DNA of 64,000 nucleotides from Escherichia coli. Its GTDB lineage: Bacteria; Pseudomonadota; Gammaproteobacteria; Enterobacterales; Enterobacteriaceae. The stretch's first letter is position 1, and each line of letters starts with the position of its first letter. The stretch lies in NCBI RefSeq assembly GCF_002854065.1, contig NZ_CP024147.1; one strand, written 5' to 3'. The translations under genes and the position numbers were made by a program. Below are positions 1-28,800 of this stretch, piece after piece. The notes under the pieces were generated by a model. It saw only the letters and a list, made by a program, of their open reading frames with translations, did not search any database and had not been told where the DNA came from.

Positions 1-187
1 TCAGCGCCTGAAAGCACGCGGCGTGCTGATGGTGCCGGGGCACAACTTCTTCCCAGGGCTGGATAAACCGTGGCCGCATACGCATCAATGTATGCGCATG
101 AACTACGTACCAGAGCCGGAGAAAATTGAGGCGGGGGTGAAGATTCTGGCGGAAGAGATAGAAAGAGCCTGGGCTGAAAGTCACTAA
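1..187 (+). CDS. avtA: valine-pyruvate aminotransferase, 3' end only (gene starts before the window)
   Basis: Open frame from position 2 to TAA at 185-187; C-terminal peptide ...NYVPEPEKIEAGVKILAEEIERAWAESH; position beside ysaA fits the E. coli gene order as I recall it. Confidence 0.7.
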   Translation, partial: QRLKARGVLMVPGHNFFPGLDKPWPHTHQCMRMNYVPEPEKIEAGVKILAEEIERAWAESH

Positions 188-192
188 AAATT

Positions 193-290
193 GCCTGATG
201 CGCTACGCTTATCAGGCCTACATGAGTTCTGCAATATATTGAATTTGGAAGAATTTGTAGGCCGGATAAGGCGTTTACGCCGCATCTGGC
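193..290. repeat. REP/BIME extragenic palindromes
   Basis: gcctgatgcgctacgcttatcaggcctac and inverted partner gtaggccggataaggcgtttacgccgcatc; the same motif recurs elsewhere in the window. Confidence 0.7.
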
Positions 291-337
291 ATAAACAAAG
301 CGCACTATTCCGGCGTTTAGAAACGCTGGAAAACGTT

Positions 338-817
338 TCAAACAGGCTGCTGCCGTAGCCGATGCCGCTGCACTTTCTCGACATCCATGCACTGCAACGC
401 CTTTGTCGGGCAGGCTTCAACACAGGCCGGTCCCGTCGCCCGATGCCAGCACAGATCGCACTTAATCGCCCTCGCCTTTTTGCGCGAAGAAACGACCTCC
501 ATCGCACCAAACGGGCAAGCCAGCATACAGCTTTTACAGCCAATGCAACGTGTTTGTTCAACGAAAATATGCCCATGTTCGCGGCTTATCGCGTCAACAG
601 GGCAGACATTCGCGCACGGTGCATCTTCACACTGATGACAGGCTACTGCCGTGGTCCAGCTGTGGTCTTTAATGACACGAATACGGGAAATAAACTCGTC
701 TGGTGACAACGCAGCGCAATCCTGATTCTCCTGATGCGACACTGCGCAAGCCACTTCACAGGTACGGCAACCGATACATTTCGTCGCATCCGCAATAATA
801 AACCGGTTCATGATCAC
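338..817 (-). CDS. ysaA: 4Fe-4S ferredoxin-type protein
   Basis: 159-aa ORF with repeated CxxCxxCxxxCP cysteine clusters (CIGCRTCEVAC, CHQCEDAPCANVCP, CIGCKSCMLACP, CDLC...CVEACP). Confidence 0.85.
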   Translation of the reverse strand: MIMNRFIIADATKCIGCRTCEVACAVSHQENQDCAALSPDEFISRIRVIKDHSWTTAVACHQCEDAPCANVCPVDAISREHGHIFVEQTRCIGCKSCMLACPFGAMEVVSSRKKARAIKCDLCWHRATGPACVEACPTKALQCMDVEKVQRHRLRQQPV

Positions 818-912
818 TCCTTTGCACTAAAACAGCAGAGTGCCAGAGAGCGCGTCCCTACTGCTTTGATCCAACGAAGGAAATGTTAAAGTTTTGGCAC
901 TTGTCCAAAGCG

Positions 913-1053
913 TTATGTGATCGCGCCCAGGTCATCCCTGACAGTAAATCCCAGTTCATTAGAAATAGCCTGCGCGGTTTCACGCAGTGGTTTCAGGAGA
1001 TTTTTCTCCCCCACCTGTTTCAGACGTGATGTCGAAAGCGAAATCGACACGGC
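913..1053 (-). pseudogene. 3' remnant of an IclR-family regulator gene, plausibly yiaJ
   Basis: Minus-strand translation gives AVSISLSTSRLKQVGEKNLLKPLRETAQAISNELGFTVRDDLGAIT*, the typical IclR-family C-terminus (xISISxPSSRL...ISxxLG). The frame has no start and breaks at about 1053, next to the stop of the AraC gene. Confidence 0.45.
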
Positions 1054-1054
1054 A

Positions 1055-1870
1055 CTACGAATTGATATGTTCCTTGCTGTAACGCCGCTTCCACGCTGCT
1101 GGCGTTAAACCGGTGTGTTTGCGAAAAATCTGCCGGAAATAGCCAACGTCATTAAACCCGCACAACGCCGCCACTTCCGTGAGCGATCGCGCTTCGCTAA
1201 TTAACAGCTTTTCGGCTTCGCGCACCCGCTGGCGATGGATTGCTTCTGTTAACGTCAGATGAAACACCCGCCGGTAGACGCGCCCAAGATAATCGGCATT
1301 GCAGTACAGCTCGCGGGCCAGAAGCGCCGTAGAAAGCGGGCGATGATATTGCGTGCGGATCAGTTTCTGCGCTTTCCAGGCAAGGGTGGTGCCTGCGCCA
1401 TCGGCCTGTTCATCAAGACGCGCGTCACGGGTGAGCTGCTGCAAAATGAGCAGCACAATAAACTCCAGCGCCGGAGTGCGTTGATGCTTTTCCTGTTCGC
1501 TTAAGAACTGGCGAAACAGGGCCACCAGCGCCTGCGGATCGACAACCTTCGTTTGTTGCGGCACGCTAAGATGAGTAAGCCAGCGAGGGTCGTTGTCCGG
1601 CGCTTTAACCTCAAAATGCAGCCAGTAAAATTTGAGATCGGCGGGAAAATCCTCCACCCCAACATGTTGTCGGTTCGGCCAGAGTAATAAACTCTCTCCC
1701 GCATCGACCAGAAATATCCGTTCTTCTTCCTGAATCGTTAATCGACCTTTTTCGACAAAGATAATTTCCCATGACTCCAGCCGCCTTGCAGGATGCCTCC
1801 CTACGCCACGGGAAATAAATAATCCACCATTTTGCACTTTAATCGGTAACGTCATGGATAATTCGAGCAT
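1055..1870 (-). CDS. AraC/XylS-family transcriptional regulator
   Basis: 271-aa ORF; C-terminal half has the double helix-turn-helix AraC signature (...AALCGFNDVGYFRQIFRKHTGLTPAAWKRR); divergent from the transporter gene. Start could be the ATG at 1870 or 1855. Confidence 0.8.
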   Translation of the reverse strand: MLELSMTLPIKVQNGGLFISRGVGRHPARRLESWEIIFVEKGRLTIQEEERIFLVDAGESLLLWPNRQHVGVEDFPADLKFYWLHFEVKAPDNDPRWLTHLSVPQQTKVVDPQALVALFRQFLSEQEKHQRTPALEFIVLLILQQLTRDARLDEQADGAGTTLAWKAQKLIRTQYHRPLSTALLARELYCNADYLGRVYRRVFHLTLTEAIHRQRVREAEKLLISEARSLTEVAALCGFNDVGYFRQIFRKHTGLTPAAWKRRYSKEHINS

Positions 1871-1893
1871 TGATATGTAATTTCCCGCTTATT

Positions 1894-1943
1894 CATTAAT
1901 GATTAAACACATTACCTTTTGATTATTAATCAAAAACATTAAT
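1894..1943. promoter_or_regulatory. candidate AraC-type operator: two direct repeats in the divergent promoter region
   Basis: ATTAATGATTAAACACATTA (1894-1914) and ATTAATCAAAAACATTAAT (1925-1943) are similar direct repeats about 31 bp apart between the regulator and the transporter gene. Confidence 0.3.
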
Positions 1944-2095
1944 TTCACCTGATCTATTTCACACTTTTAAATTCAGGTCGGAATCGTCACCTTTTTTTAC
2001 TCTTTTCTCGCCTTGTTGATATTCCCGTTCACGGCAGAATTAATCAGGTCATTTCAATAAAACTAAAAATTGCTCCCTATTCACGAGGAATATCT

Positions 2096-3496
2096 ATGAC
2101 CTCTACACCGATTACTACCGCTGATATCGCTAAAGGTAAAATTGACGATGCGTTATCTGTACGGGAAAAAATAGGCTACGGCCTGGGTGACGCAGGCGGC
2201 ACCGTAATAACTTGCCTGATCATGAATTTTCTCACCTTTTTCTACACCGACGTTTTTGGATTAACTCCGGCGCTGGTTGGCACGCTGTTTATTGCACTGC
2301 GCGTGTTTGATGCCATCTCCGACCCGGTGATGGGCGTCATTGCCGACCGGACGCAAAGTCGCTGGGGGCGCTTTCGTCCGTGGCAGCTATGGATTGCCAT
2401 TCCCATCGGCATTATCGGCATCCTGACGTTCACCGTGCCAGATGCCAGCATGGGAGTAAAAATCGCCTGGGCGTTCGGTACTTACCTGCTCCTTTCAGTC
2501 GGTTATACCGCCATCAACGTACCGTACTGCGCGCTGATCAACACCATGACCACCCGCCACAATGAAGTGATCTCCTGCCAGTCCTGGCGATTCGTTCTCT
2601 GTGGCGTAGCGGGATTTCTGGTTTCGGTAGGCTTACCGTGGATGGTAGATCTCTTCGGTCAGGGTAATGCCGCGCGCGGCTATCAATTGGGCGTCGGCGT
2701 GCTGTGCGCCATTGCCGTGGTGATGTTCCTGTGCTGTTTTTTCTGGGTTCGTGAACGGGTGCCACTCTCCACAATGGGGAAATTTACCCTGCGCGAACAT
2801 CTTGCCGGGCTGCGGAACAACGACCAACTGCTGCTGATGCTGGTCATGTCTTTCCTGCTGATTAACGTCTTTAACATTCGCGGCGGTGGGTATATGTACT
2901 TCATTACCTACGTCTTACAAGGCAGTACGGGCTACACGTCGCTGTTCTTCACCATGGTCACCTTCGCCTCCATTATCGGCTCGGTGATTGTCAGCCCGTT
3001 AACGCGGCGTTTCGATACCGTCAAAATTTACTACTACACCAACCTGCTCCTCGCTGCGCTGGCAGTGTTGATGTGGTTCCTGCCCTCCGGCCCGGCTTAT
3101 CAAACGCTGTGGCTGGCGGTGATCCTCGGTAATGGCGTAATTCTTGGCTTCACATTGCCACTGCACTTCTCATTGATGGCCTTTGCCGATGACTACGGCG
3201 AGTGGAAAACCCGCGTACGTTCTTCCGGCATGAACTTCGCCTTCAATCTGTTTTTCATCAAGCTGGCCTGGGCCTCCAGCGCCGGGATCATCAGCCTGCT
3301 GTTTATTTTTGTCGCCTACCAGCCTGGCGTGGAAAACCAGACCGCCAGTTCGCTTGGCGGGATCGCGGCGATGGAAACATTACTGCCTGCGCTATTCCAC
3401 CTGCTGCTGGCAGGGGCGATCCGCTTTTGCAAACTCAATCATCCTATGATGTCACGCATAGCTACCGACCTGCGTCAGCGTCATGTACAGCCTTAA
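2096..3496 (+). CDS. GPH-family (glycoside-pentoside-hexuronide:cation symporter) MFS sugar transporter
   Basis: 466-aa ORF, hydrophobic throughout; N-terminal GYGLGDAGG...[21 protein letters not shown] motif is typical of MelB/YicJ-type symporters. Confidence 0.85.
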
Positions 3497-3506
3497 GGAG
3501 CACAAG

Positions 3507-5477
3507 ATGAACATTTCGGAAGTCGATCTGCATAAACTGACGGTCAGCGATCCGTTCCTCGGTCAGTACCAACAACTGGTCCGCGACGTGGTGATTCCTT
3601 ATCAGTGGGATGCTTTGAACGATCGTATCCCAGAAGCGGAACCCAGCCATGCGATTGAAAACTTTCGCATTGCCGCCGGACTTCAGGAGGGTGAATTTTA
3701 CGGGATGGTGTTTCAGGACAGCGACGTCGCCAAATGGCTGGAAGCAGTAGCCTGGTCGCTGTGCCAGAAGCCGGACGCCGAACTGGAAAAAACCGCCGAC
3801 GAGGTGATTGAACTGGTCGCCTCCGCCCAGTGCGAAGACGGCTATCTCAATACTTACTTTACGGTAAAAGCACCCGAAGAACGCTGGAGCAATCTGGCGG
3901 AGTGTCATGAACTTTACTGCGCAGGTCATCTGATTGAAGCCGGAGTCGCCTTCTTCCAGGCCACGGGAAAACGGCGCTTGCTGGGGGTCGTTTGCCGCCT
4001 GGCCGATCATATCGACAGCGTATTTGGTCCAGATGAAAGTAAGTTACACGGTTATCCTGGTCACCCGGAAATTGAACTGGCACTAATGCGCCTGTATGAA
4101 GTGACTGAAGAGCCGCGCTACCTGGCGCTGACGAACTATTTTGTCGAACAGCGTGGTGCGCAACCGCACTATTACGACCAGGAATATGAAAAGCGCGGGC
4201 AGACATCGCACTGGCACACCTACGGCCCGGCATGGATGGTGAAAGACAAAGCCTACAGCCAGGCACATTTGCCCCTTGCGCAACAGCAAACCGCCATCGG
4301 TCACGCGGTACGTTTTGTCTATCTGATGACCGGCGTCGCGCATCTCGCGCGTTTAAGTCACGATGACAGCAAGCGTCAGGACTGCCTGCGGCTGTGGAAC
4401 AATATGGCCCAGCGTCAGTTATATATTACCGGCGGCATTGGCTCGCAAAGCAGCGGCGAAGCGTTCACTAGCGATTACGATCTGCCGAATGACACGGTAT
4501 ACGCTGAAAGTTGCGCCTCCATCGGCCTGATGATGTTTGCCCGACGAATGCTGGAAATGGAAGGCGACAGTCAATATGCCGATGTGATGGAGCGCGCACT
4601 GTACAACACCGTGCTCGGCGGCATGGCGCTGGATGGCAAACATTTCTTCTATGTGAATCCGCTGGAAGTACATCCAAAATCGCTGAAATTCAACCATATC
4701 TACGATCACGTTAAACCGATCCGCCAGCGTTGGTTTGGCTGCGCTTGTTGTCCGCCAAATATCGCCCGCGTGCTGACCTCGATTGGTCATTATCTCTACA
4801 CGCCGCGTGAAGATGCGTTGTATATCAACATATACGCAGGAAACAGCATGGAAGTGCCGGTAGAAAATGGCACGCTGCGCCTGCGGGTTAGCGGGAACTA
4901 TCCGTGGCAGGAGCAGGTGACGATTGCGGTTGAATCGCCCCAGCCGGTACGTCATACGCTGGCTTTACGTCTGCCGGACTGGTGCACACAGCCGCAGATC
5001 ATATTGAATGGGGAAGAGGTCGAGCAGGATATTCGTAAAGGGTATTTGCACATTACCCGCGAATGGCAGGAGGGCGATACGCTGAATCTGACTTTGCCGA
5101 TGCCGGTACGCCGCGTTTACGGTAACCCGCTGGTGCGTCACGTCGCCGGAAAAGTGGCGATTCAGCGCGGCCCGCTGGTGTATTGCCTGGAACAGGCCGA
5201 CAACGGCGAGTCACTGCATAATCTGTGGCTGCCCACCGATGCGCCATTTACGACATTTGAAGGCAAGGGATTGTTTAGCCATAAGATCTTAATCCAGGCA
5301 CCGGGTTACCGGTATGAACAGAGCAATCCAGAGCAGCAACCGCTGTGGCATTACGACAGCGCGCCAGCCAAACGCCAGACGCAAACTCTGACCTTTATCC
5401 CATGGTTTAGCTGGGCCAACCGGGGTGAAGGCGAAATGCGGATCTGGGTGAATGAGGAAAAGCATTGCCATCCGTAG
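3507..5477 (+). CDS. glycoside hydrolase family 127 (DUF1680, beta-L-arabinofuranosidase-like)
   Basis: Start set at ATG 3507, preceded by AAGGAG; 656 aa; Cys-rich WFGCACCPPN motif resembles the GH127 catalytic/zinc site; lies 10 bp after the transporter stop, so probably co-transcribed. Confidence 0.75.
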   Translation: MNISEVDLHKLTVSDPFLGQYQQLVRDVVIPYQWDALNDRIPEAEPSHAIENFRIAAGLQEGEFYGMVFQDSDVAKWLEAVAWSLCQKPDAELEKTADEVIELVASAQCEDGYLNTYFTVKAPEERWSNLAECHELYCAGHLIEAGVAFFQATGKRRLLGVVCRLADHIDSVFGPDESKLHGYPGHPEIELALMRLYEVTEEPRYLALTNYFVEQRGAQPHYYDQEYEKRGQTSHWHTYGPAWMVKDKAYSQAHLPLAQQQTAIGHAVRFVYLMTGVAHLARLSHDDSKRQDCLRLWNNMAQRQLYITGGIGSQSSGEAFTSDYDLPNDTVYAESCASIGLMMFARRMLEMEGDSQYADVMERALYNTVLGGMALDGKHFFYVNPLEVHPKSLKFNHIYDHVKPIRQRWFGCACCPPNIARVLTSIGHYLYTPREDALYINIYAGNSMEVPVENGTLRLRVSGNYPWQEQVTIAVESPQPVRHTLALRLPDWCTQPQIILNGEEVEQDIRKGYLHITREWQEGDTLNLTLPMPVRRVYGNPLVRHVAGKVAIQRGPLVYCLEQADNGESLHNLWLPTDAPFTTFEGKGLFSHKILIQAPGYRYEQSNPEQQPLWHYDSAPAKRQTQTLTFIPWFSWANRGEGEMRIWVNEEKHCHP

Positions 5478-5479
5478 GT

Positions 5480-5600
5480 TGGATAAGGCACTCGCGCCGC
5501 ATCCAACGTAAGGAGCACATTGCCTGATGCGACGCTTAACACGTCTTATCAGGCATACAAGTCGGTGCGAGAGCGTAGGCCAGCCGCACCGACATCCACC
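5480..5600. repeat. REP-like extragenic palindromes
   Basis: gttggataaggcactcgcgccgcatccaac and cctgatgcgacgcttaacacgtcttatcagg between two convergent genes. Confidence 0.55.
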
Positions 5601-5606
5601 GGTGAA

Positions 5607-6347
5607 TTAAAAACGCCAGCTCACGCCGGTGACAAAGGTAAAACTCTCATTACGATCAATCATCGGGCTGTCGGTAATCTCTTCCGGCAGCTCGCTGTAT
5701 CCGGCGCTCGCCATCAATACGACGTGCTCTCCTATCGGGTATTTTGCCGTCAGGCTGACATAGGGCACCCAGGCATCCTGCGCGGAATAACTTGCCAGAC
5801 CGCTACGACGGGACTCACTCTCTGAAATGCCATAGTAATAGTCACTGAAATTCTCGTCATAATAGAGAACGCCCAGCGCAGGTGTCAGCGACAGACGACC
5901 TATCTGCATTTTGTGGAATACCGATAGCTCCCCCACCCAGCCGTTGCTGTTATCCAGAACGTCCGCAGCTGCAGAGGCTTTCACGGTTCCCCAACGCTCG
6001 TGGTGATACCAGGCAACCCCCGCCATAGCCGTACTATCACGCTTATCAAGCTGTTGCATGGCATAATCGTCATTATCGGCAGGGTCAAATTCCAGCGGCA
6101 TCCAGGATGCGGTCAGGCTAAGTTCATTTTTTTCACTTTGCGACAGAATAAAACCTAACGTGGTCTGACGAACATAAAAAGAATCACCTTCATAACTAAT
6201 CAGGGGAATTGCCTTTGTATTTTCATTATAACCGCGATAAGGCGATTCATTATAAGCCGCACCAGCACCAATGGATAATTCAGAAGCAGTTGCGCTTGCC
6301 ATAAAAGGCAACGCAAATAACGCCACAATATTGCGGTTAATTAACAT
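5607..6347 (-). CDS. yiaT: MipA/OmpV-family outer membrane protein
   Basis: 246-aa ORF with signal peptide (MLINRNIVALFALPFMASATA) and C-terminal aromatic residue (…SWRF). Confidence 0.85.
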   Translation of the reverse strand: MLINRNIVALFALPFMASATASELSIGAGAAYNESPYRGYNENTKAIPLISYEGDSFYVRQTTLGFILSQSEKNELSLTASWMPLEFDPADNDDYAMQQLDKRDSTAMAGVAWYHHERWGTVKASAAADVLDNSNGWVGELSVFHKMQIGRLSLTPALGVLYYDENFSDYYYGISESESRRSGLASYSAQDAWVPYVSLTAKYPIGEHVVLMASAGYSELPEEITDSPMIDRNESFTFVTGVSWRF

Positions 6348-6470
6348 GTCCGGTATTCCATTTTAAAATAAGATAAAAAAGAGTCGGCATAGTAATGCTT
6401 ACAATTTCTCCGGTGCAAGATTCATATTTATATAGTAATATATAAAATTATATATAATTGGGCTGTTGCG

Positions 6471-7445
6471 ATGACAAAATTACAACTTAAGTACCGGGAG
6501 TTAAAAATTATCTCGGTAATCGCTGCCAGTGAAAATATCAGCCATGCTGCGACTGTACTTGGCATCGCACAGGCCAACGTCAGCAAATACCTTGCTGATT
6601 TTGAATCAAAAGTGGGTTTAAAAGTCTTTGACCGAACCACCCGGCAGCTGATGCTCACACCTTTTGGTACCGCGCTGTTACCGTACATCAACGACATGCT
6701 GGACAGAAACGAGCAGCTTAATAATTTTATTGCAGATTATAAGCATGAGAAACGTGGTCGGGTCACCATCTACGCCCCAACCGGCATAATTACCTATTTA
6801 TCCAAACATGTAATCGATAAAATTAAAGATATCGGTGATATAACCTTATCGCTAAAAACCTGCAATCTTGAGCGTAATGCCTTTTATGAAGGCGTCGAAT
6901 TTCCTGATGATTGTGATGTTTTAATCAGCTACGCTCCACCAAAAGATGAATCGCTGGTTGCCAGTTTTATTACACAATATGCCGTAACCGCTTATGCCAG
7001 CCAGCGCTATCTTGAGAAACATCCTATTAGCCGTCCTGACGAACTCGAACATCACTCCTGTATTTTGATCGACTCGATGATGATCGACGACGCGAATATC
7101 TGGCGCTTCAACGTCGCCGGGAGTAAAGAGGTGCGGGATTATCGCGTGAAGGGAAATTACGTTTGCGACAACACGCAATCTGCGCTGGAGCTGGCACGAA
7201 ATCACCTGGGGATTGTGTTTGCGCCAGACAAAAGTGTGCAGAGAGATCTGCAAGACGGCACGCTGGTGCCCTGCTTTCAGCACCCGTATGAATGGTGGCT
7301 GGATCTGGTGGCTATCTTCCGTAAACGGGAATACCAGCCCTGGCGGGTCCAGTATGTGCTGGATGAAATGCTGCGTGAAATTCGCCACCAGCTTGCTCAG
7401 TCGCAGCAACTGCGGCCTGAACAAGCGGCGGAAAGCGAAGATTAA
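6471..7445 (+). CDS. yiaU: LysR-family transcriptional regulator
   Basis: 324-aa ORF; N-terminal HTH ([23 protein letters not shown]); divergent from yiaT. Confidence 0.85.
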
Positions 7446-8578
7446 TGATCGAGATAAAGGTAATGCACCCAGCTGGTCATGCGTAATAACACTTTGCGCA
7501 TCACCGAGACATGGCTGAAATGATCAGAGTAGACCGCCACCTGGGCGTAAATACCGTCTGGTAAAGCGCTCAAATCAGTGTGCTCATTCAGTTCAATGGT
7601 CGCGATAACGCCATCTGAACCCGGCGCTGTGTTTAACGTCTGTAAGGTGCCGGTCGACTGATAAGCTCCGCCGGGAACGGCTGGACTAATGGCTGCCAGC
7701 TTACCGCTGAATACCTTACCTGGCAGAGCATTAAACACCACTTCCGCATCGTCGCCAGGGGCCAGTCGCAGCAAGGAGTTCTGACGGAACTGCGCCACAA
7801 TTTGTCGTTTCTGATCGGGTATAAACACCATCACCGGACGTAGCGGCAGCGACGCGGCATAGGTACCCGGACGAATCAGTACCTGGGTCACATAACCATC
7901 GCTCGGCGCACGCACTATCGTCTGCTCAAGGTTATATTTTGCTTCCGCGAGCTGCGCTTTCAGGCTGGCGATTTGAGAATGTTCACCCAACACCAGGCTA
8001 TCCAGCTGGCTCTGGATCTGTTTTTGTTCCGCCGCCGATGACTTCACGGAGGCTTCCTGCGCCAGATAATTTTGCCGCGCCACATCGATATCGCGTTCTG
8101 AAAACGGGTTTACTTTCGCCTGGCTGCCGCGTGCGTAACGCTGATACTCTTTAGCGAATTTATCCCGCGTGGCCTTTGCCTGCTGAGTATTCGCCGCCAT
8201 CTCATCTAACTCTGCGCCCAACGCCCGCTGTTTATGTTCTGCGGTAACGATATCCGCCATCAGCCGATCCACCTGCGCCTGATAACGCGTCGGGTCCAGT
8301 CGAAATAGCACCTCACCTTTTTTAATTAGCGTATTTTTCTTGTCCGTCACTTCGATCACCACGCCTGTCACCTGCGGGACAACAGGAATAGAAATAACCG
8401 CTTTTTGCGCTTTAAAGGTATACGGATGGTTATAGTTCATTAACAGAATTAAACCGCTGACAATAAATATTCCACCCAGGGCCGCGGTGGGAATGGTCCA
8501 TTTATTTACAGGAATTTTGAAGATCTTAAACATTGCCCATGCGAAAGCCACATAGGTCAAAATAATCAGTAAATCCAT
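7442..8578 (-). CDS. yiaV: HlyD-family membrane fusion / periplasmic adaptor protein
   Basis: 378-aa ORF; N-terminal TM anchor then coiled-coil-rich region; about 75-80% identical by eye to the ORF at 17841-18977. Confidence 0.85.
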
Positions 8579-8583
8579 AAGTA

Positions 8584-8907
8584 TTACTCGGCAGAAGAGG
8601 ATTTGATGTCAGCGAGCTGTTTCTCCAGCCCAGCAATACGCTGTTGTAGTTGCACAACGGAGGAGTCATGGTTTTGCATTCCCCATCCCCGCTCCGGGCG
8701 GTAAAGCGTGGCCCAAATCCACAAAAATGGCCAGATAACATGCAGCGTAAAAAGACTCACCCAACCAGCAACATGAATGGCGTCGGCATGAGGATGATTA
8801 CGTTTTTTAGCAATCAGGTAGGGAATATCATGTAAAATAATAATCCCATAGAATATCACCAGAAATACAAAAATAAGCACTCCCAGTGCAAAATAGTCCA
8901 GGAACAT
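8584..8907 (-). CDS. yiaW: small inner-membrane protein (DUF3302)
   Basis: 107 aa from [17 protein letters not shown]...; 5 bp upstream of yiaV; paralogous to the ORF at 18980-19342. Confidence 0.8.
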
Positions 8908-9338
8908 ATTTCCCTCAGAGAATATAAAAAAGAACAATTAACACATATTATGAAATGCCATGATGCAGTGCAATTTCCTTATTTATATAACGACATATTA
9001 TTTTTTATATACTTTCTGAAGTGTGCTGCGTGGCTTTTCAACAGGTCGAGGTTTATCATATTGAAATAATGGAACTATTGGCCAAATTTATGATTAAAAA
9101 CCGTAAAACATCCACAATGCAGATTAAGCGTATTAAACCTTCAATAATCTACCGTTTATTGCTGATTGTCCTCGGAATACCAATGGTGATTTACGGTCTG
9201 GTTTGCCCGCTCACCATCGAAACGCGAGATTAAACTCCTGGCAAAACACACCCCAGAAACGCACTTTTGTTGGCGTAGTCTGGGTTATTGCACACGTAGG
9301 TTTAAAACGTAAATTGTAACAACGTGCGCTTTGTTTAT

Positions 9339-11154: not shown

Positions 11155-12167
11155 TTACATTGCGGCGCGATAAATCGCCACAATTTCTTCGTGAGTTGCC
11201 TGGATCGGGTTAGTAAAGCCACAGGCATCTTTCAGGGCATTAGTCGCCAGAACCGCGAAATCTTCTTCTTTCACGTTCAGGTCGCGTAGGCCTGCCGGGA
11301 TATCCACTTTCTTCGCCAGTTCACGGATGGCGTTAATGCAGGCTTCAGCACCTTCCGCGTCGTTTTTACCTGTCACGTTCACGCCCATTGCAGCGGCACA
11401 GTCACGCAGACGTGCAGCGGCGACTTTGCTGTTGAATACCTGAACATGCGGCAGCAGAACGGCGTTACATACACCGTGTGGCAGGTTGTAGAAACCGCCC
11501 AGCTGGTGCGCCATCGCATGAACATAACCCAGAGAAGCATTATTGAACGCCATACCGGCGAGGAACTGGGCATAAGCCATTGCTTCACGCGCTTTCGCAT
11601 TACTGCCATCTTCAACGGCTAACGGCAGGTTTTCGGCAATCATGGTCACGGCTTTCAGTGCACAAGCGTCAGTGATCGGCGTGGCGGCAATAGAAACATA
11701 CGCTTCGATAGCGTGCGTTAAGGCATCCATACCCGTTGCGGCGGTCAGTGACTTCGGCATACCAATCATCAGAGAGGAGTCATTGACAGAAAGCAGCGGA
11801 GTGACATGTTTATCAACAATCGCCATTTTGATATGACGCGCTTCGTCAGTGATGATGCAGAAACGGGTCATTTCAGAGGCCGTACCCGCCGTGGTATTGA
11901 TGGCGATCATCGGCAGCTGCGGTTTTGCAGAGCGGTCAACGCCTTCGTAATCGCGAATATCGCCGCCATTGGCTGCCACCAGCGCAATACCTTTTGCGCA
12001 GTCGTGCGGAGAACCACCGCCTAAGGAAATCACGCTATCGCAATTATTTTCTTTAAGTAATTTCAAACCTGCAGCGACGTTTTCCGTGGTGGGGTTAGGT
12101 TGGGTGCCATCATAAATAATGCTAAAAATATTGCGTTCTTCCAGTGCTTTTTGCACATCGCCCGCCA
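11155..12167 (-). pseudogene. yiaY: iron-containing alcohol dehydrogenase gene, 5'-truncated by IS1
   Basis: Fe-ADH frame (…[20 protein letters not shown]…) reads uninterrupted into the IS1 terminal repeat at 12168; about 45 N-terminal codons and the native promoter are absent. Confidence 0.8.
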
Positions 12168-12182
12168 GGTAATGACTCCAAC

Positions 12183-12686
12183 TTATTGATAGTGTTTTAT
12201 GTTCAGATAATGCCCGATGACTTTGTCATGCAGCTCCACCGATTTTGAGAACGACAGCGACTTCCGTCCCAGCCGTGCCAGGTGCTGCCTCAGATTCAGG
12301 TTATGCCGCTCAATTCGCTGCGTATATCGCTTGCTGATTACGTGCAGCTTTCCCTTCAGGCGGGATTCATACAGCGGCCAGCCATCCGTCATCCATATCA
12401 CCACGTCAAAGGGTGACAGCAGGCTCATAAGACGCCCCAGCGTCGCCATAGTGCGTTCACCGAATACGTGCGCAACAACCGTCTTCCGGAGACTGTCATA
12501 CGCGTAAAACAGCCAGCGCTGGCGCGATTTAGCCCCGACATAGCCCCACTGTTCGTCCATTTCCGCGCAGACGATGACGTCACTGCCCGGCTGTATGCGC
12601 GAGGTTACCGACTGCGGCCTGAGTTTTTTAAGTGACGTAAAATCGTGTTGAGGCCAACGCCCATAATGCGGGCAGTTGCCCGGCAT
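12183..12686 (-). CDS. insB: IS1 InsB (expressed as InsAB' by -1 frameshift)
   Basis: 167-aa [28 protein letters not shown]..., overlapping insA in the -1 frame. Confidence 0.95.
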
Positions 12687-12880
12687 CCAACGCCATTCAT
12701 GGCCATATCAATGATTTTCTGGTGCGTACCGGGTTGAGAAGCGGTGTAAGTGAACTGCAGTTGCCATGTTTTACGGCAGTGAGAGCAGAGATAGCGCTGA
12801 TGTCCGGCGGTGCTTTTGCCGTTACGCACCACCCCGTCAGTAGCTGAACAGGAGGGACAGCTGATAGAAACAGAAGCCAC
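12605..12880 (-). CDS. insA: IS1 InsA
   Basis: 91 aa, [43 protein letters not shown]... Confidence 0.95.
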
Positions 12881-12963
12881 TGGAGCACCTCAAAAACACC
12901 ATCATACACTAAATCAGTAAGTTGGCAGCATCACCTATTATTGTTTAGCAAAATTAATCTAAT

Positions 12964-13007
12964 AAAAAGCACATTGTATTCATTAAACAATGTGCTTTTT
13001 TTAAAAT
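12964..13007. terminator. perfect hairpin, probable bidirectional rho-independent terminator downstream of selB
   Basis: aaaagcacattgt-attcatta-acaatgtgcttttttt: 13-bp perfect stem with an A-tract on one side and T-tract on the other; sits in the 85-bp spacer between the two IS1 copies. Confidence 0.6.
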
Positions 13008-13035
13008 CATAAGAATTTTGGGTAATGACTCCAAC

Positions 13036-13539
13036 TTATTGATAGTGTTTTATGTTCAGATAATGCCCGATGACTTTGTCATGCAGCTCCACCGATTTTG
13101 AGAACGACAGCGACTTCCGTCCCAGCCGTGCCAGGTGCTGCCTCAGATTCAGGTTATGCCGCTCAATTCGCTGCGTATATCGCTTGCTGATTACGTGCAG
13201 CTTTCCCTTCAGGCGGGATTCATACAGCGGCCAGCCATCCGTCATCCATATCACCACGTCAAAGGGTGACAGCAGGCTCATAAGACGCCCCAGCGTCGCC
13301 ATAGTGCGTTCACCGAATACGTGCGCAACAACCGTCTTCCGGAGCCTGTCATACGCGTAAAACAGCCAGCGCTGGCGCGATTTAGCCCCGACGTATCCCC
13401 ACTGTTCGTCCATTTCCGCGCAGACGATGACGTCACTGCCCGGCTGTATGCGCGAGGTTACCGACTGCGGCCTGAGTTTTTTAAATGGCGGAAAATCGTG
13501 TTGAGGCCAACGCCCATAATGCGGGCGGTTGCCCGGCAT
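13036..13539 (-). CDS. insB: IS1 InsB (variant)
   Basis: 167 aa; [21 protein letters not shown]... vs copy 1 [21 protein letters not shown]...; YDRLRKT vs YDSLRKT. Confidence 0.9.
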
Positions 13540-13733
13540 CCAACGCCATTCATGGCCATATCAATGATTTTCTGGTGCGTACCGGGTTGAGAAGCGGTGT
13601 AAGTGAACTGCAGTTGCCATGTTTTACGGCAGTGAGAGCAGAGATAGCGCTGATGTCCGGCAGTGCTTTTGCCGTTACGCACCACCCCATCAGTAGCTGA
13701 ACAGGAGGGACAGCTGATAGAAACAGAAGCCAC
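13458..13733 (-). CDS. insA: IS1 InsA (variant)
   Basis: 91 aa; differs from copy 1 (…NTIFRHLKN… vs …NTILRHLKN…). Confidence 0.9.
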
Positions 13734-13831
13734 TGGAGCACCTCAAAAACACCATCATACACTAAATCAGTAAGTTGGCAGCATCACCGAATTTTGTATT
13801 AATTTATTTTAAAACTTAATTAATCATTTCC

Positions 13832-15676
13832 TTATTTTTCCGGAAATAATAATGCGTCGCGCAATAAATGATCATTTCCACGACGACGCGTAAAGCCAAT
13901 GCGGTCAAAATATTCCAGGATTTGAATCGCCAGTTTTCGCCCAACCCCTAAGCGATCGCGGAAATCCGCCGCGCAGGTTGAACCACATTCCTGATCGAGA
14001 TCGCGGATCATATTGGCAAACTCGACAATCCGATCGTTACGGTAATAACGATCTTTGACGATCGCGGTAATTATCCCCTGTTGGGCCGCCTGGCGTAGCG
14101 TCAGACGCATTGCCTGCTCGTCGGTTCCCGTCTCTTTTGCCAGGTCACGCACCCACCACGGTTCGTCACCAAACAGCGGCTCTGCTTTTTGCCAGATGGC
14201 CTGCTGCTCTTCGCTGAAGCCCGCTTTGTGATCCGGCAGATGCAGCCAACCGTGATGACTGAGGATGTCGCCGCTTTCGCGCATCTTTTCAATCAGCAAC
14301 AGTACCAGCGCTTCATCTTCCATTGGCAACGCCATACGTCGCAGACGTTCGCGCCCAGGACCAGGTTCATCGCGATGTTGCTCATGATAAGTCGCTAATG
14401 TGTCGAGAATTTTCCGCTGCCAGCGGGCGGCAACTGGCGCATTCAACAAGCTATAACCAGCCTGAATATAGCCCGGCTGTTGCAGTAGTTCGCGCATCCC
14501 TTCGCCGTTGAGCTGGCGTGCCCAGGCGAAATCCGCAAGGTTAACCGCTCCGCGTTCCAGATGAACAGATAACGCATCGGCATCGCTCTGCGCCCGTGCA
14601 AGAGACGCCAGCCATTGCAGATATTCCGGCTTACGTTTACCGCGACGCGGCGGGTTAAGCATCACCACACGTGCCCCCGCCAGCGTATTGCGGGCCGAGA
14701 TATCGCGCAACACTAAGCGATCGTTATCCGCCAGCCACAGCGGCGTGTCGAACACCAGCTCGGCAAGGTTATCTTCCAGCAGCGAAACGCGTCCCGTAAC
14801 GTGGCTGGCGGCGTGGTGAATATGCAGCGGCTGCCACTGGGTCAGCGGCGTATGGGTTTGAAGCTCGACAATCACCCGCGTGAACGGCTCTGGCGGCACA
14901 TCGGCAAGCAGCCAGTCGCCACGGTTAATCTGCTCTTTTTCCGCATCCCCCGCGATGTTAAGCGCGATACGCTGGCCGGCATGAGCGGTTTCTGTTGGCT
15001 GGTTTTGTGCATGCAGCGCACGTACACGCATCGGTTTATTTACACCAGTCAGCCATAGTGAATCGCCTACCGTCACTTCCCCGCTTAACGCCGTACCGGT
15101 GACGACCAGCCCGGCACCTTTTACGGTAAATGCGCGGTCGATCGCGAGGCGGAAACTATGTTGGCTGGCGTGTTCACGTTCTGGTAACTGAAGCAGATGC
15201 TCGCGCAGGGCATCAATTCCCCGACCCTCGGTTGCTGCGGTGATAAACAGTTTTGCCTCAGCAAAACCGTATTCCCGCAGCACCTCCTTTACCTGGCGTT
15301 CAACCTCATTAACACGCGCTTCGTCCACGCGATCGGCTTTGGTCAGCGCCACTGTCAGCATCGGGTTACCGGTCAGCTGCAAAATCGCCAGATGCTCACG
15401 GGTCTGTGCCATCACACCGTCATCGCACGCCACCACCAACAGCGCGTGATCGATACCACCAACGCCCGCCAGCATGTTGGAAAGAAACTTTTCATGACCG
15501 GGTACGTCGATAAAACCAGGCACGCGACCATCCGGCTGCGGCCAGTAGGCATAGCCGAGATCGATGGTCATGCCGCGCTTTTTTTCTTCCGGCAGACGAT
15601 CGGCATTTACGCCAGTAATCGCCTGCAATAAGGTTGTTTTGCCGTGGTCAACGTGTCCGGCAGTCGCAATAATCAT
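13832..15676 (-). CDS. selB: selenocysteine-specific translation elongation factor
   Basis: 614-aa ORF; N-terminal GTPase motifs ([24 protein letters not shown]). Confidence 0.95.
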
Positions 15677-17161: not shown

Positions 17162-17770
17162 TCAAGCCTTTGGCGGTTCGGTGCGAGCAAAACTTTCGCG
17201 GCTAAACAGGTTTTCGACCAGTTTGACTAAGTGTGGGCGGTCGACACACCAACCTGGCGCAACGCGGCGGAAATTGAGATATCCGACGGCACAGGCAATA
17301 GCGATAGTCGCCAGATTGACCGTATCGGTTTTGAGTGTGCCATCGACCAGATATCCTTCCAGCACATCCAGACTGCGGTTGATTTTCTCCCGCTGGCGTA
17401 ACAATTCATCTTCAGACTGCTGCGCCGCTGGACGCGCCTGTTCACGCACCGATACCAGCCCGGCATCCATAATGCCATCCGCCAGTGCCTCAATTTTGCG
17501 CACCCGCAACGACTCCAGCGGATCGCGCGGCAACATCGCCGGAGCGACATTCATTAATTCAATATATTCAGCGATGATCGGCGAATCAAACCAGCATTCG
17601 CCCTCTTCGGTCACCAGCACCGGCACTTTTCCTAACGGGTTAAATTGCGCCACGCCGTTGTCCGCGTTATAGGGCAGTTCATTAATAAATTCGAAAGTTA
17701 TGCCCTTTTCTAACAACAGAATAGAAAGTTTGCGTACAAACGGGCTGGTGTAGCTACCGACGAGTTTCAT
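17162..17770 (-). CDS. yibF: glutathione S-transferase-like protein
   Basis: 202-aa [31 protein letters not shown]..., GST N-terminal thioredoxin-like fold. Confidence 0.9.
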
Positions 17771-17840
17771 GCCGAGTCCTTTGTGCGAGGAAAAATATCA
17801 GTATGGCTCAGGCTCACGCAAAACACAGGTGATATAAGTC

Positions 17841-18977
17841 TCAATGATCCAAATAAAGATAATGCATCCAGCTGGTCATTCTTAGCAGCACTTTTCGCAT
17901 CACCGAAACATGGCTGAAATGGTCGGAGTAAACTGCCACCTGGGCGTAAATGCCGTCGGGTAAGGCATCGATATCATCGTTAGGGTCCAGTTCAATGGTT
18001 CCCAGCACACCGTCCGTGCCGGGCACGACCGTTAATGATTGCAATACCCCCTGCGCCTGATAAGAACCGCCTGGCACGACAGGTAAAATACTGGTCAGTT
18101 TGCCGTGGAACACCTGCCCAGGTAGCGCGTTAAACACCACTTCCGCATCATCGCCAGGTTTCAGACGTAACAGCGAGTTTTGCCGAAATTGGGCGACAAT
18201 TTGCCGTTTTTGCTCGGGGATGAAAACCATCACCGGACGCAACGGCAAGGCAGCTGCGTATGTGCCTGGGCGGATCAGTACCTGAGTGACGTAGCCATTG
18301 CTTGGTGCGCGAATGACGGTCTGTTCAAGGTTATATTTTGCTTCTGTAAGTTGCGCTCTTAAGCTCACAATCTGCGATTGCTCGCCGTTGACCATACTGT
18401 CGAGCTGACTCTGGATCTGCGCCTGCTCCGCCACCGAGCCTTTCACTAACGCATCCTGCGCGAGGAAATTTTGCCGCGCATCGTCGATGTCACGTTCCGA
18501 GAACGGATTCACCGCCGCCTGGCTGCCTTTCAGATAACGTTGATAATTTTTAAACAGACGGTCGCGCTCCGCTGAAACCTGGGTGGTGTTGGCCTGCGCT
18601 TCAGTGAGCTGCGCGCGCAGCGTCTTTATATTATGCGTCGCCGTCATCAGGTCAGCCTGAAGTCTGTCAACTCGCGCCTGGTAACGAACCGGGTCGAGCT
18701 TAAAAAGCACCTCGCCCTTTTGAATAAGCTGATTATTCTTGTCAGTGACTTCAGTAACAATTCCCGTCACCTGTGGCGTGATGGGGATCGCTATCACTGC
18801 CTTTTGCGCGGTAAAAGTGTAAGGGTGGTTGTAGTTCATCAACAAAATCAAACCACTCACCAGAAACACGCCTCCCAGCGCCGCCGTCGCCAGCGTCCAC
18901 TGATTCACCGGAATGCGGAAGATTTTAAAGACCGCCCACGCCAACGCCACGTAAGTTAAAACAATCAATAGATCCAT
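17841..18977 (-). CDS. yibH: HlyD-family membrane fusion / periplasmic adaptor protein (paralog of yiaV)
   Basis: 378-aa ORF colinear with yiaV ([27 protein letters not shown]..., shared C-terminus ...[19 protein letters not shown]). Confidence 0.85.
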
Positions 18978-25897: not shown

Positions 25898-28800
25898 ATG
25901 AACAAAATATTTAAAGTAATCTGGAATCCGGCGACGGGCAGTTATAGCGTTGCCAGCGAAACGGCGAAGAGCCGTGGTAAGAAATCTGGTCGCAGTAAGC
26001 TGTTAATTTCTGCACTGGTTGCGGGTGGAATGTTGTCGTCGTTTGGGGCAAATGCCAGTGCGACACTTGATGGAGGTTCATCTATTGAAGACCCATCAAT
26101 GGGTACTCGCTGGCTTGCAATCGGTGAGGGCGCAAAAGCAACATCCGCGTTACAAGGTGATGGATATACCGTTGCGATAGGGCTTAATGCACTAGCAGAT
26201 GGTCAGGGTAGTCTTGCATTCGGCTACGATACCCACTCATCGGGTGATCGTTCTATCTCTATTGGCCAATATGCTGAATCCGCAGGAAACAGAACCATTG
26301 CTTTCGGTAGTGGGTCCAAGGCAATAGGAGACTATTCGCTTGCATTAGGAGGAACTACCTATACAGGTGGTGACTACTCCATTGCAGTGGGTAGGGATTC
26401 GAGGGTAGAAGACGATGCTGATTACGCCTCCTCTTTTGGTTACGGCGCCAAGGCAGGCGGGGTCTATAGCATGGCATTCGGTTTCGAAACTAAAGCTAAT
26501 GCCGTTGACAGCCTGGCAATGGGACGACTAGCTACAGCCAGTGCAGCAAACGCTATTGCGATAGGTGCAGAGGCTGAAGCCGCTGAAAATGCGATGGCTA
26601 TTGGCAATAATGCGAAGGCAAAAGGGACTAATAGCATGGCAATGGGGTTCGGAAGCCACGCCGATAAAGTCAATACTATCGCATTAGGAAATGGCAGCCA
26701 GGCTCTGGCAGATAATGCAATCGCCATAGGCCAGGGCAACAAAGCTGATGGCGTGGATGCCATCGCTCTGGGTAATGGTAGCCAGTCGAGAGGCTTAAAC
26801 ACCATTGCCTTAGGCACAGCCAGTAATGCAACTGGTGATAAGAGTCTTGCGCTTGGTAGTGATACCACTGCCAACGGTATTAACTCCGTCGCATTGGGTG
26901 CAGGTTCCACTGCGGATTTAGACAATACCGTCTCTGTCGACAATAGTTCATTAAAACGCAAGATCGTTAATGTGAAAAATGGCGCGATCAAGTCTGACAG
27001 TTACGATGCCATTAATGGTTCACAGCTTTATGCCATTAGCGACTCGGTAGCACAAAGGCTTGGGGGAGGATCATCAGTAGATGTTGATGACGGTACTGTT
27101 ACAGCACCAACCTACAATTTAAAAAATGGTAGCAAAAAGAACGTAGGGGCTGCGCTCACTGTACTTGATGAAAACACCCTGCAATGGGACCAAATCAAAG
27201 GCAAATACAGCGCTGCTCATGGTACTAGTAGCCCAACTGCCAGCGTAATCACCGATGTTGCGGATGGCACGATTTCAGCCTCCAGTAAGGAGGCGGTTAA
27301 CGGCTCCCAACTGCAAGCTACCAATGACGATGTTGAGGCCAACACCACCAATATCACCAACCTGACGGATTCCGTTGGTGACCTTCAGGCTGATGCCCTG
27401 CTCTGGAACGAAACTAAAAAGGCATTCAGTGCAGCTCACGGCCAGGATACCACCAGCAAAATCACCAACGTTAAAGATGGCGACCTGACGGCTGGCAGCA
27501 CTGATGCCGTTAACGGCTCTCAGCTGAAAACCACCAACGATGCTGTGGCGACGAATACCACCAATATCGCCAATAACACTTCCAATATTGCCACTAACAC
27601 CACCAACATCTCTAACCTGACTGAGACGGTGACTAACCTTGGTGAAGATGCGCTGAAATGGGATAAGGACAATTGTGTCTTCACGGCAGCTCATGGCACC
27701 GATGCCACCAGCAAAATCACCAATGTTAAAGATGGCGACCTGACGGCTGGCAGCACTGATGCCGTTAACGGCTCTCAGCTGAAAACTACCAACGATGCTG
27801 TGGCGACGAATACCACCAATATCGCCAATAACACTTCCAATATTGCCACTAACTCCACCAACATCTCTAACCTGACTGAGACGGTGACTAATCTTGGTGA
27901 GGATGCTCTGAAATGGGATAAGGACAATGGTGTCTTCACGGCAGCTCACGGCACCGAGGCCACCAGCAAAATCACCAACGTTAAAGATGCCGACCTGACG
28001 GCTGACAGCACCGATGCCGTTAACGGCTCTCAGCTGAAAACCACCAACGATGCCGTGGCGACGAATACCACCAATATCGCCACTAACACTTCCAATATTG
28101 CCACTAACACCACCAACATCTCTAACCTGACTGAGACGGTGACTAACCTTGGTGAAGATGCGCTGAAATGGGATAAGGACAATGGTGTATTCACGGCAGC
28201 TCACGGCACAGAAGCCACCAGCAAAATCACCAACGTTAAAGATGCCGACCTGACGGCTGGCAGCACTGATGCCGTTAACGGCTCCCAGCTGAAAACCACC
28301 AACGATGCTGTGGCGACGAATACCACCAATATTGCCACTAACACCACCAACATCTCTAACCTGACTGAGACGGTGACTAATCTTGGTGAGGATGCGCTGA
28401 AATGGGATAAGGACAATGGTGTATTCACGGCAGCTCATGGCAACAACACCGCCAGCAAAATCACCAATATCCTGGACGGCACAGTCACTGCAACCAGTTC
28501 CGATGCCATTAACGGCAGCCAGCTTTATGACTTAAGCAGCAATATCGCCACCTACTTCGGCGGCAATGCTTCTGTGAATACTGACGGTGTGTTTACCGGT
28601 CCAACCTACAAAATCGGTGAAACAAATTATTATAACGTCGGCGATGCACTGGCTGCGATTAACTCCTCATTTAGCACGTCTCTCGGCGATGCCCTGCTTT
28701 GGGACGCTTCCGTAGATAAATTTAGTGCCAAACACGGTACTAATGGTGACGCAAGCGTGATCACTGATGTCGCAAACGGGGATGTTTCAAGCACAAGCTC

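Follow-up and report, generated by a model that had tools for sequence, protein, structure and literature searches.

The interval between ysaA and yiaT in a 64,000-nucleotide stretch of an Escherichia coli chromosome (contig NZ_CP024147.1; the whole stretch is called the window here) holds a three-gene module, consisting of a gene for an AraC-family regulator and, divergent from it, a gene pair for a GPH-family cation symporter and a GH127 glycoside hydrolase. The original prediction for this DNA held that the module replaces the yiaJ-sgbE operon found at this site in K-12; this view fails, since both gene sets stand in tandem in full-type E. coli, from which the window differs by one deletion and K-12-type genomes by two deletions that remove the module. 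The window and K-12 look swapped because they carry reciprocal deletions from a tandem ancestor, and the appearance of a replacement arose because the comparison was made with K-12 only; it is a case of reference bias, in which an apparent island swap resolves into two reciprocal deletions and K-12 turns out to have lost a conserved enterobacterial operon. The account favoured here, a tandem ancestor followed by deletions, with the module acting as an inducible beta-L-arabinofuranoside catabolic unit, is considered probable as a whole.

Loss of yiaJ-sgbE From a Tandem Arrangement

In the full-type strain EC0026B (locus L001), the genes follow the order ysaA-yiaJ-yiaK-yiaL-yiaM-yiaN-yiaO-lyxK-sgbH(ulaD)-sgbU-sgbE(araD)-AraC-MFS-GH127-yiaT. 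Window positions 1-1053 align with L001 3972-5024 and positions 1043-8999 with L001 14001-21957, with no other insertion or deletion; the window lacks a single segment of 8,987 bp (L001 5025-14011) that reaches from the interior of yiaJ to a hairpin after sgbE. The comparisons show the ancestral Escherichia order to be avtA-ysaA-yiaJ-yiaKLMNO-lyxK-sgbHUE, followed by the AraC-family gene, the divergent GPH-GH127 pair and yiaT.

The deletion joined a 141-bp tail of yiaJ to the stop codon of the AraC-family gene. The start-less IclR-family C-terminus at this place had rightly been taken for what is left of yiaJ: the minus-strand translation of positions 913-1053 (AVSISLSTSRL...GAIT, then a stop) is identical in 46 of 46 residues to YiaJ 237-282 of full-type E. 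coli, and the DNA of positions 818-1053 matches the 3' end of L001 yiaJ in 235 of 236 nucleotides (99.6%), in frame and with the 5' part of the gene missing. In RefSeq the remnant is entered as an IclR-family pseudogene without its N-terminus; an NCBIfam search with the 46 residues returned nothing, as expected for so short a piece. YiaJ is the IclR-family repressor of the yiaK-sgbE operon, whereas the remnant retains 16% of the protein and has lost the start codon and the DNA-binding domain; what is left is a scar and no longer a gene. The junction, which had been placed near 1053-1057, lies at 1053/1054.

Both parental sequences of the junction are present in L001 as an 11-bp repeat, with the copy ATCGACACGGC at 5014-5024 inside yiaJ and the copy ATCGCCCCGGC at 14001-14011; the latter forms the 3' arm of a perfect hairpin, GCCGGGGC-ttcatc-GCCCCGGC, between sgbE and the AraC-family gene. 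The copies match at 9 of 11 positions and share four exact base pairs (CGGC) at the breakpoint. Such an imperfect repeat at a breakpoint is the signature of illegitimate recombination or slippage, and not of insertion.

K-12-type genomes (L002) keep yiaJ-sgbE; between sgbE and yiaT they retain just the last 102 bp of the AraC-family gene and an internal 190-bp fragment of the GH127 gene (89.5% identical), both of which RefSeq calls partial pseudogenes. This scar, which is 100% identical in K-12 AB1157, amounts to two deletions relative to L001 (14117-18137 and 18328-18537); the second has a 6-bp microhomology, CCAGCC, and on the right it ends within the loop of the hairpin on the yiaT side (window positions 5561-5593). 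K-12 has gone the opposite way, losing the three-gene module and keeping yiaJ-sgbE. Because the window and K-12 represent separate deletions from the tandem arrangement, nothing was inserted, and a right-hand replacement junction does not exist. In MG1655 the published order is yiaS-ysaC...ysaD-yiaT, with yiaS being sgbE (PMC12361893, in a strain-construction description); judged by position, ysaC and ysaD are apparently the two module scars, in contrast to the window, where all three genes are intact and evolve under purifying selection.

Two observations concern the breakpoints as such. In the K-12-type locus the scar breakpoints fall at L002 3117 and 3301-3306; and both deletions end in stem-loops, the K-12 scar in the loop of the yiaT-side hairpin and the window deletion in the 3' arm of the one that follows sgbE. 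Escherichia whittamii (L007 5480-5600) shows a separate, nearly reading-frame-precise loss of sgbE alone (L001 13283-13973) beside the same AraC-family gene, which is another independent loss at this boundary.

One or Several Origins of the Junction

Among 5,426 complete E. coli genomes, surveyed by megablast with window positions 800-5700 for presence of the module, the window-type junction between the yiaJ tail and the AraC-family gene occurs in two alleles that account for all 426 genomes of this type: ATCGACACGGC in 77 genomes (among them the window, enterotoxigenic E. coli O169:H41, O157:H16 and O78) and ATCGCCCCGGC in 349, mostly O157:H7. The two alleles are told apart by precisely the two positions at which the parental repeats do not match, which suggests that the 8,987-bp deletion occurred on more than one occasion at the imperfect repeat. 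The window allele also occurs in Escherichia sp. E1V33, of a cryptic lineage, with flanks 93% identical and a synonymous divergence (dS) of 0.43-0.63, which excludes recent transfer; and window positions 929 and 934 share the haplotype of a full-type strain, not that of O157. The flank on the side of the AraC-family gene, however, differs between the window and O157 at just 4 positions in approximately 1,450 bp, with a dS of 0, compared with 19 differences from full-type L001; this likeness fits a single event in which a heteroduplex with two mismatches segregated into two daughter alleles. Imperfect 11-bp repeats 9 kb apart are also a poor substrate for repeated slippage, and the informative single-nucleotide polymorphisms examined are only a handful. 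The two alleles and the E1V33 junction point either to recurrence or to one event with heteroduplex segregation, and the flank data are mixed; the chance of a recurrent origin is put slightly below even. A more elaborate scenario, in which the loss of yiaJ-sgbE is a recurrent site-specific deletion driven by the 11-bp repeat beside the terminator hairpin and favoured in module-keeping lineages such as O157:H7, perhaps in connection with life on plant matter or with cross-feeding on fragments of extensin, is offered tentatively and seems rather doubtful.

The Three Proteins and the Divergent Control Region

The three module genes are all full length, and the families to which the original prediction assigned their products were borne out. 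The regulator (271 residues) carries the two parts that define the AraC/XylS family, a C-terminal double helix-turn-helix (Pfam HTH_18, PF12833, 4e-19, residues 184-263) and an N-terminal cupin ligand domain (AraC_binding, PF02311, 1.3e-9, residues 26-132). Its best NCBIfam match, to the AraC protein of the arabinose operon (NF007860), reached 61.1 bits, far under the cut-off of 208, and orthology with AraC was rejected; the database name "Arabinose operon regulatory protein" is not justified for it. The ratio of nonsynonymous to synonymous substitution rates (dN/dS) of its gene is 0.05-0.14.

The intergenic region between the regulator and symporter genes was analyzed by aligning 21 divergent intergenic regions from approximately 20 genera; six blocks (Table 1) are 80-100% conserved across these genera, and the DNA around them is scrambled. 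One block resembles a binding site of CRP and another a -10 element, and TTGTTG-N16-CAGAAT is a possible -35/-10 pair; the roles of individual blocks, and the promoter and operator assignments among them, are guesses. Beside the start codon of the regulator gene, a 23-nt AT-rich direct repeat (1892-1914 and 1919-1941) is 78% identical between its copies at a spacing of 27 bp; of the two copies, the second alone overlaps a block conserved across genera. A scan for terminators gave weak terminator-like hits only.

The symporter matches the GPH:cation symporter model TIGR00792 over nearly its full length (residues 25-462) at 331.5 bits, above the curated cut-off of 231.35, which places it in the family TC 2.A.2. 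It aligns end to end with MelB (PDB 4M64, 2e-37), and its D72 and D76 align with MelB D55 and D59, the helix-II acidic residues of the cation site. The coupling ion is not predictable, because S75 of the symporter aligns with N58 of MelB, which is a Na+ ligand there. As an orthologue of YagG (NCBIfam NF007237) the symporter was rejected: it scored 353.8 bits where the cut-off is 610, which makes it a related carrier only.

The symporter and hydrolase genes are separated by exactly 10 bp, as had been claimed (stop codon TAA at 3494-3496, ATG at 3507). The AAGGAG at 3495-3500 overlaps the symporter stop codon, and the start at 3507 is preferred to an upstream in-frame ATG at 3483 because of this Shine-Dalgarno sequence, which has no comparable counterpart before 3483; the overlap suggests translational coupling of the two genes.

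The hydrolase (656 residues) has the complete GH127 architecture, with the catalytic (alpha/alpha)6 domain (PF07944, 1.1e-111, residues 12-427) and the middle and C-terminal beta domains (PF20736, 1.3e-23; PF20737, 3.1e-25). Its closest structural match over the full length is PDB 4QJY, deposited as a GH127 beta-L-arabinofuranosidase and presumably from Geobacillus stearothermophilus T-6 (782 bits, 55% identity over 628 residues), followed by HypBA1 of Bifidobacterium longum (PDB 3WKW, 507 bits, likewise full length). Residues E319, E335, C337, C414 and C415 align (phmmer, 3WKW) with HypBA1 E322, E338, C340, C417 and C418, the last four of which we take to be its zinc ligands; the histidines aligned with HypBA1 H142, H194 and H270, which presumably contact the sugar, are all kept. 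HypBA1 is a cytoplasmic enzyme with Cys417 as nucleophile, Glu322 as acid/base and a (Cys)3-Glu zinc site (PMC8106489); the corresponding residues are all found in the hydrolase, which shares with both 4QJY and HypBA1 the three-domain architecture, the cysteine nucleophile, the glutamate acid/base and the aligned zinc-site residues. It should be cytoplasmic as well, because its N-terminus, MNISEVDLHKLTVSDPF, has no signal-peptide-like hydrophobic stretch. The dN/dS of its gene is 0.03-0.08.

Predicted Function of the Module

The module likely lets the cell, when induced, take up a small beta-L-arabinofuranoside and hydrolyze it in the cytoplasm, to judge from the families of its proteins and from the conservation of synteny and residues; this is the system that the original prediction had proposed, and it remains the best functional guess. 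The AraC-family protein would use its cupin domain to sense a sugar or glycoside and would activate the divergent GPH-GH127 operon, probably together with CRP; the GPH carrier would take up the small glycoside by cation symport; and the GH127 enzyme, a predicted cytoplasmic retaining glycosidase with a zinc-held cysteine nucleophile, would cut the beta-L-arabinofuranosyl linkage, so that the freed L-arabinose could enter the araBAD pathway. The likeliest substrate would be beta-1,2-arabinobiose or a comparable piece of the hydroxyproline-rich glycoproteins of plants, such as an extensin-derived one, released by other gut or plant-associated organisms. Arrangements of this kind are familiar from the melAB, uidAB, yicJI and yagGH operons of E. 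coli, in which a GPH carrier is encoded together with a cytoplasmic glycosidase. The module resembles these operons in that a symporter of the same family, matching YagG-like and GPH models and alignable with MelB, is encoded beside an intracellular glycosidase, with a dedicated regulator and probably CRP; it differs from them in its enzyme family, GH127, and in its regulator, an uncharacterized AraC-family protein. In B. longum, HypBA1 is supplied by an ABC importer and a secreted arabinobiosidase of family GH121 (PMC8106489); the module differs from that system in having a GPH symporter as the partner of the hydrolase.

Several observations weigh against the proposed function. A sigma-70 promoter scan of positions 1871-2095 yielded no consensus site. 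The sole NCBIfam hit of the hydrolase is "aceric acid hydrolase" (residues 260-657), at 455.7 bits and thus far under the cut-off of 950 bits, and the GH127 family also holds enzymes of other specificities. The examined loci (whole genomes were not searched) showed no secreted enzyme beside the module that could free beta-arabino-oligosaccharides. The substrate would have to be supplied by other organisms, or be a small plant glycoside. A literature search found no experiment on an enterobacterial GH127 enzyme, its carrier or its regulator.

Some of these points are shared by the alternative that the module is functional but its GH127 enzyme acts on another glycoside, such as a different furanoside, an aceric-acid-type sugar or a plant secondary-metabolite glycoside. 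Besides the breadth of the family and the aceric acid hydrolase match, this alternative draws on a GH127 chain deposited merely as a "six-hairpin glycosidase" (PDB 6EX6, 386 bits), on the distance of the hydrolase from the nearest deposited beta-L-arabinofuranosidase (just 55% identity) and on the carrier, which is YagG-like and yet under the cut-off of that subfamily. Both of the strongest full-length matches, however, are deposited as beta-L-arabinofuranosidases; the remaining GH127 chains in the PDB align over the C-terminal two thirds only; and the catalytic residues, the zinc-site residues and the three histidines are all kept. A different substrate is accordingly regarded as unlikely, and action on a beta-L-arabinofuranoside remains the preferred reading.

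Distribution of the Module and Its Flanks

In the census of complete E. coli genomes, the module is present over at least 80% of its length in 2,311 genomes (43%). These carriers include the 426 genomes (7.9% of all) with the window-type junction and 567 genomes in which the module abuts aldB and yiaTUVW are absent (GmM077-like, L005); approximately 1,300 remain for the full tandem type, a figure obtained by subtraction with the classes taken as disjoint. The K-12 scar is found in 2,461 genomes (45%), a further 481 have sgbE abutting aldB without the module or yiaTUVW (Nissle-like, L004), and approximately 170 were not assigned. In many of the genomes matched by megablast the match begins only at the 3' end of the AraC-family gene. 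Deletions from a common tandem ancestor have made the locus a mosaic. An intact and conserved putative operon for beta-L-arabinofuranoside uptake and hydrolysis is present in about 43% of complete E. coli genomes, O157:H7 and derivatives of B strains among them. The Nissle-type locus (L004 16506-17426) adds to the mosaicism: within its yiaK-sgbE operon, yiaL and yiaM are separated by an additional DUF4862 gene, and a Fic-family gene stands between aldB and yiaY.

Beyond E. coli, a scan with one genome per species and tblastn mapping recovered the triad AraC(-)/GPH(+)/GH127(+) in approximately 70 of the best 80 of 265 related loci, in Escherichia, Citrobacter, Klebsiella, Raoultella, Enterobacter, Leclercia, Kluyvera, Salmonella diarizonae, Pantoea and others. 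In most of these loci the triad has avtA-ysaA or lyxK-sgbU-sgbE on its left and yiaT-yiaU or aldB on its right, and both left-hand states occur within single genera, for example Citrobacter and Enterobacter. Because the triad keeps its slot while the left flank varies, the three-gene module is its conserved resident and yiaJ-sgbE the variable cassette. In the loci outside Escherichia where ysaA abuts the AraC-family gene, residual scars of yiaJ or sgbE were not found. Against orthologues from cryptic Escherichia, Citrobacter, Salmonella, Klebsiella and Enterobacter, the dN/dS of all three genes ranges from 0.02 to 0.14; by these ratios the triad is under strong purifying selection. Its control region is deeply conserved.

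Homologs of the GH127 enzyme, approximately 71% identical, occur in several Bradyrhizobium genomes (L076-L079, L081, L083), where the AraC and GPH partners are absent, and a second GPH-GH127 pair, approximately 70% identical, is found elsewhere in Citrobacter gillenii and in an Enterobacteriaceae metagenome-assembled genome (L084, L085).

The yiaT Side

The palindromes between the GH127 gene and yiaT had been described as REP-like, at positions 5480-5600, and taken to mark the other boundary of the replacement. Two of them, at 5481-5503 and 5523-5553, are genuine repetitive extragenic palindromic (REP) elements, because they belong to dispersed families with four and three copies in the window, against none expected by chance; further copies lie at 264, 9343 and 21906 (one family) and at 194 and 31154 (the other), and all of these copies lie between mapped open reading frames. 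A strict 33-nt REP pattern matched itself only, and it was shorter gapped cores that revealed the dispersed copies. The third palindrome, at 5561-5593, was rejected as a REP; it is a unique hairpin with a 9-bp stem, probably the terminator of yiaT. The REPs do not mark a boundary: the segment from GH127 through the REPs to yiaT is colinear with full-type genomes, without insertions or deletions, and the GH127 gene adjoins yiaT also in Citrobacter, Enterobacter and Leclercia.

A horizontally acquired three-gene island that replaced yiaJ-sgbE, with junctions near 1053 and at the REPs, has in its favor that the two gene sets look mutually exclusive at one site against K-12 alone, but is highly improbable: such an island would bring two novel junctions and a segment absent from the ancestral arrangement, whereas the window has one novel junction; approximately 1,300 to 1,900 complete E. 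coli genomes (by subtraction) hold both sets in tandem; K-12 keeps fragments of the AraC-family and GH127 genes; the module is the conserved resident of its slot across Enterobacteriaceae and yiaJ-sgbE the variable part; the yiaT side is colinear; and the L001 and L005 loci, together with the K-12 scars, refute it directly.

An Rfam search gave no match inside the region from the yiaJ remnant to the hairpin. On the minus strand at 214-256, a match to the small RNA ES036 (CssrF), at 39.7 bits against a gathering score of 37.6, overlaps a REP in the spacer between avtA and ysaA, and is probably a REP-derived hit.

Annotation, Literature and Significance

RefSeq already annotates all four features, the remnant and the three genes, in thousands of genomes; the finding is real but ordinary, in that it concerns a known, annotated three-gene sugar-uptake operon spread across enterobacteria. 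The literature search revealed no characterized GH127 (DUF1680) protein from E. coli or other enterobacteria, and no account of the yiaJ-sgbE deletion in O157. An E. coli GH127 gene is listed among the accessory genes that co-segregate with invasiveness of isolates from inflammatory bowel disease (PMC11879602). Beyond bookkeeping the significance is small; the module may have a role in the use of plant cell-wall glycoprotein fragments.

Layout of the Window

The first 9 kb of the window hold, in order, the 3' end of avtA, ysaA, the yiaJ tail, the AraC-family gene, a divergent spacer of 225 bp, the GPH and GH127 genes, two REPs, the hairpin, and yiaT, yiaU, yiaV and yiaW. The three gene families, the spacing of the gene pair, the remnant, the junction and the REPs were all found where the original prediction had placed them (Table 1).

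Table 1. Features of the ysaA-yiaT interval in the window, with the conserved blocks of the control region.
Feature	Position	Strand	Basis
ysaA, 4Fe-4S ferredoxin-like protein (left flank)	338-817	-	159-aa open reading frame; HydN-like NCBIfam match; ysaA in RefSeq genomes
yiaJ (IclR-family) 3' remnant	913-1053	-	46 codons and stop; start codon missing
Deletion junction, ATCGACACGGC	1043-1053		Surviving copy of imperfect 11-bp repeat; breakpoint 1053/1054
AraC/XylS-family regulator, 271 aa	1055-1870	-	Pfam PF12833 and PF02311
Divergent control region	1871-2095		Alignment of 21 intergenic regions
Conserved block TTGATTATTAA	1919-1929		21-region alignment
Conserved CRP-like block CCTGAtctattTCACA, CCTGA-N6-TCACA	1948-1963		21-region alignment
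Conserved block GTCGGAAT	1977-1984		21-region alignment
Conserved block TTTTT(A/T)TACT, resembling a -10 element	1992-2001		21-region alignment
Conserved block CCTTGTTG	2011-2018		21-region alignment
Conserved block GCAGAATTA	2034-2042		21-region alignment
GPH cation symporter, 466 aa	2096-3496	+	TIGR00792
Shine-Dalgarno AAGGAG of the GH127 gene	3495-3500	+	Read from sequence
GH127 glycoside hydrolase, 656 aa	3507-5477	+	Three GH127 Pfam domains
Two REP-type palindromes, cores 5481-5503 and 5523-5553	5478-5556		Dispersed copies; inverted-repeat arms
Unique hairpin GTCGGTGCG-N15-CGCACCGAC, directly downstream of the yiaT stop	5561-5593		9-bp stem
yiaT, MipA/OmpV family (right flank)	5607-6347	-	Open reading frame; NCBIfam; RefSeq annotation

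Strain 100416 is 100% identical to the window over positions 800-5700, and colinearity between the two ends further on; an "internal stop" in aldB of strain 100416 is not present in the window. At 12157-13800 the window has two tandem IS1 copies within the 5' part of yiaY, extra copies that strain 100416 lacks; InsA (91 residues) and InsB (167 residues) are each encoded twice, with open reading frames at 12183-12880 and 13036-13733 on the minus strand, and the interrupted yiaY leaves an open reading frame of 333 residues (11155-12156), compared with 383 residues in strain 100416. At 17162-18977, approximately 70 bp separate yibF from yibH and no Rhs element intervenes, whereas EC0026B has an RHS core protein after yibF. 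On the plus strand, an open reading frame of 1,737 residues at 25898-31111 corresponds in position to a YadA-like trimeric autotransporter annotated in strain 100416.

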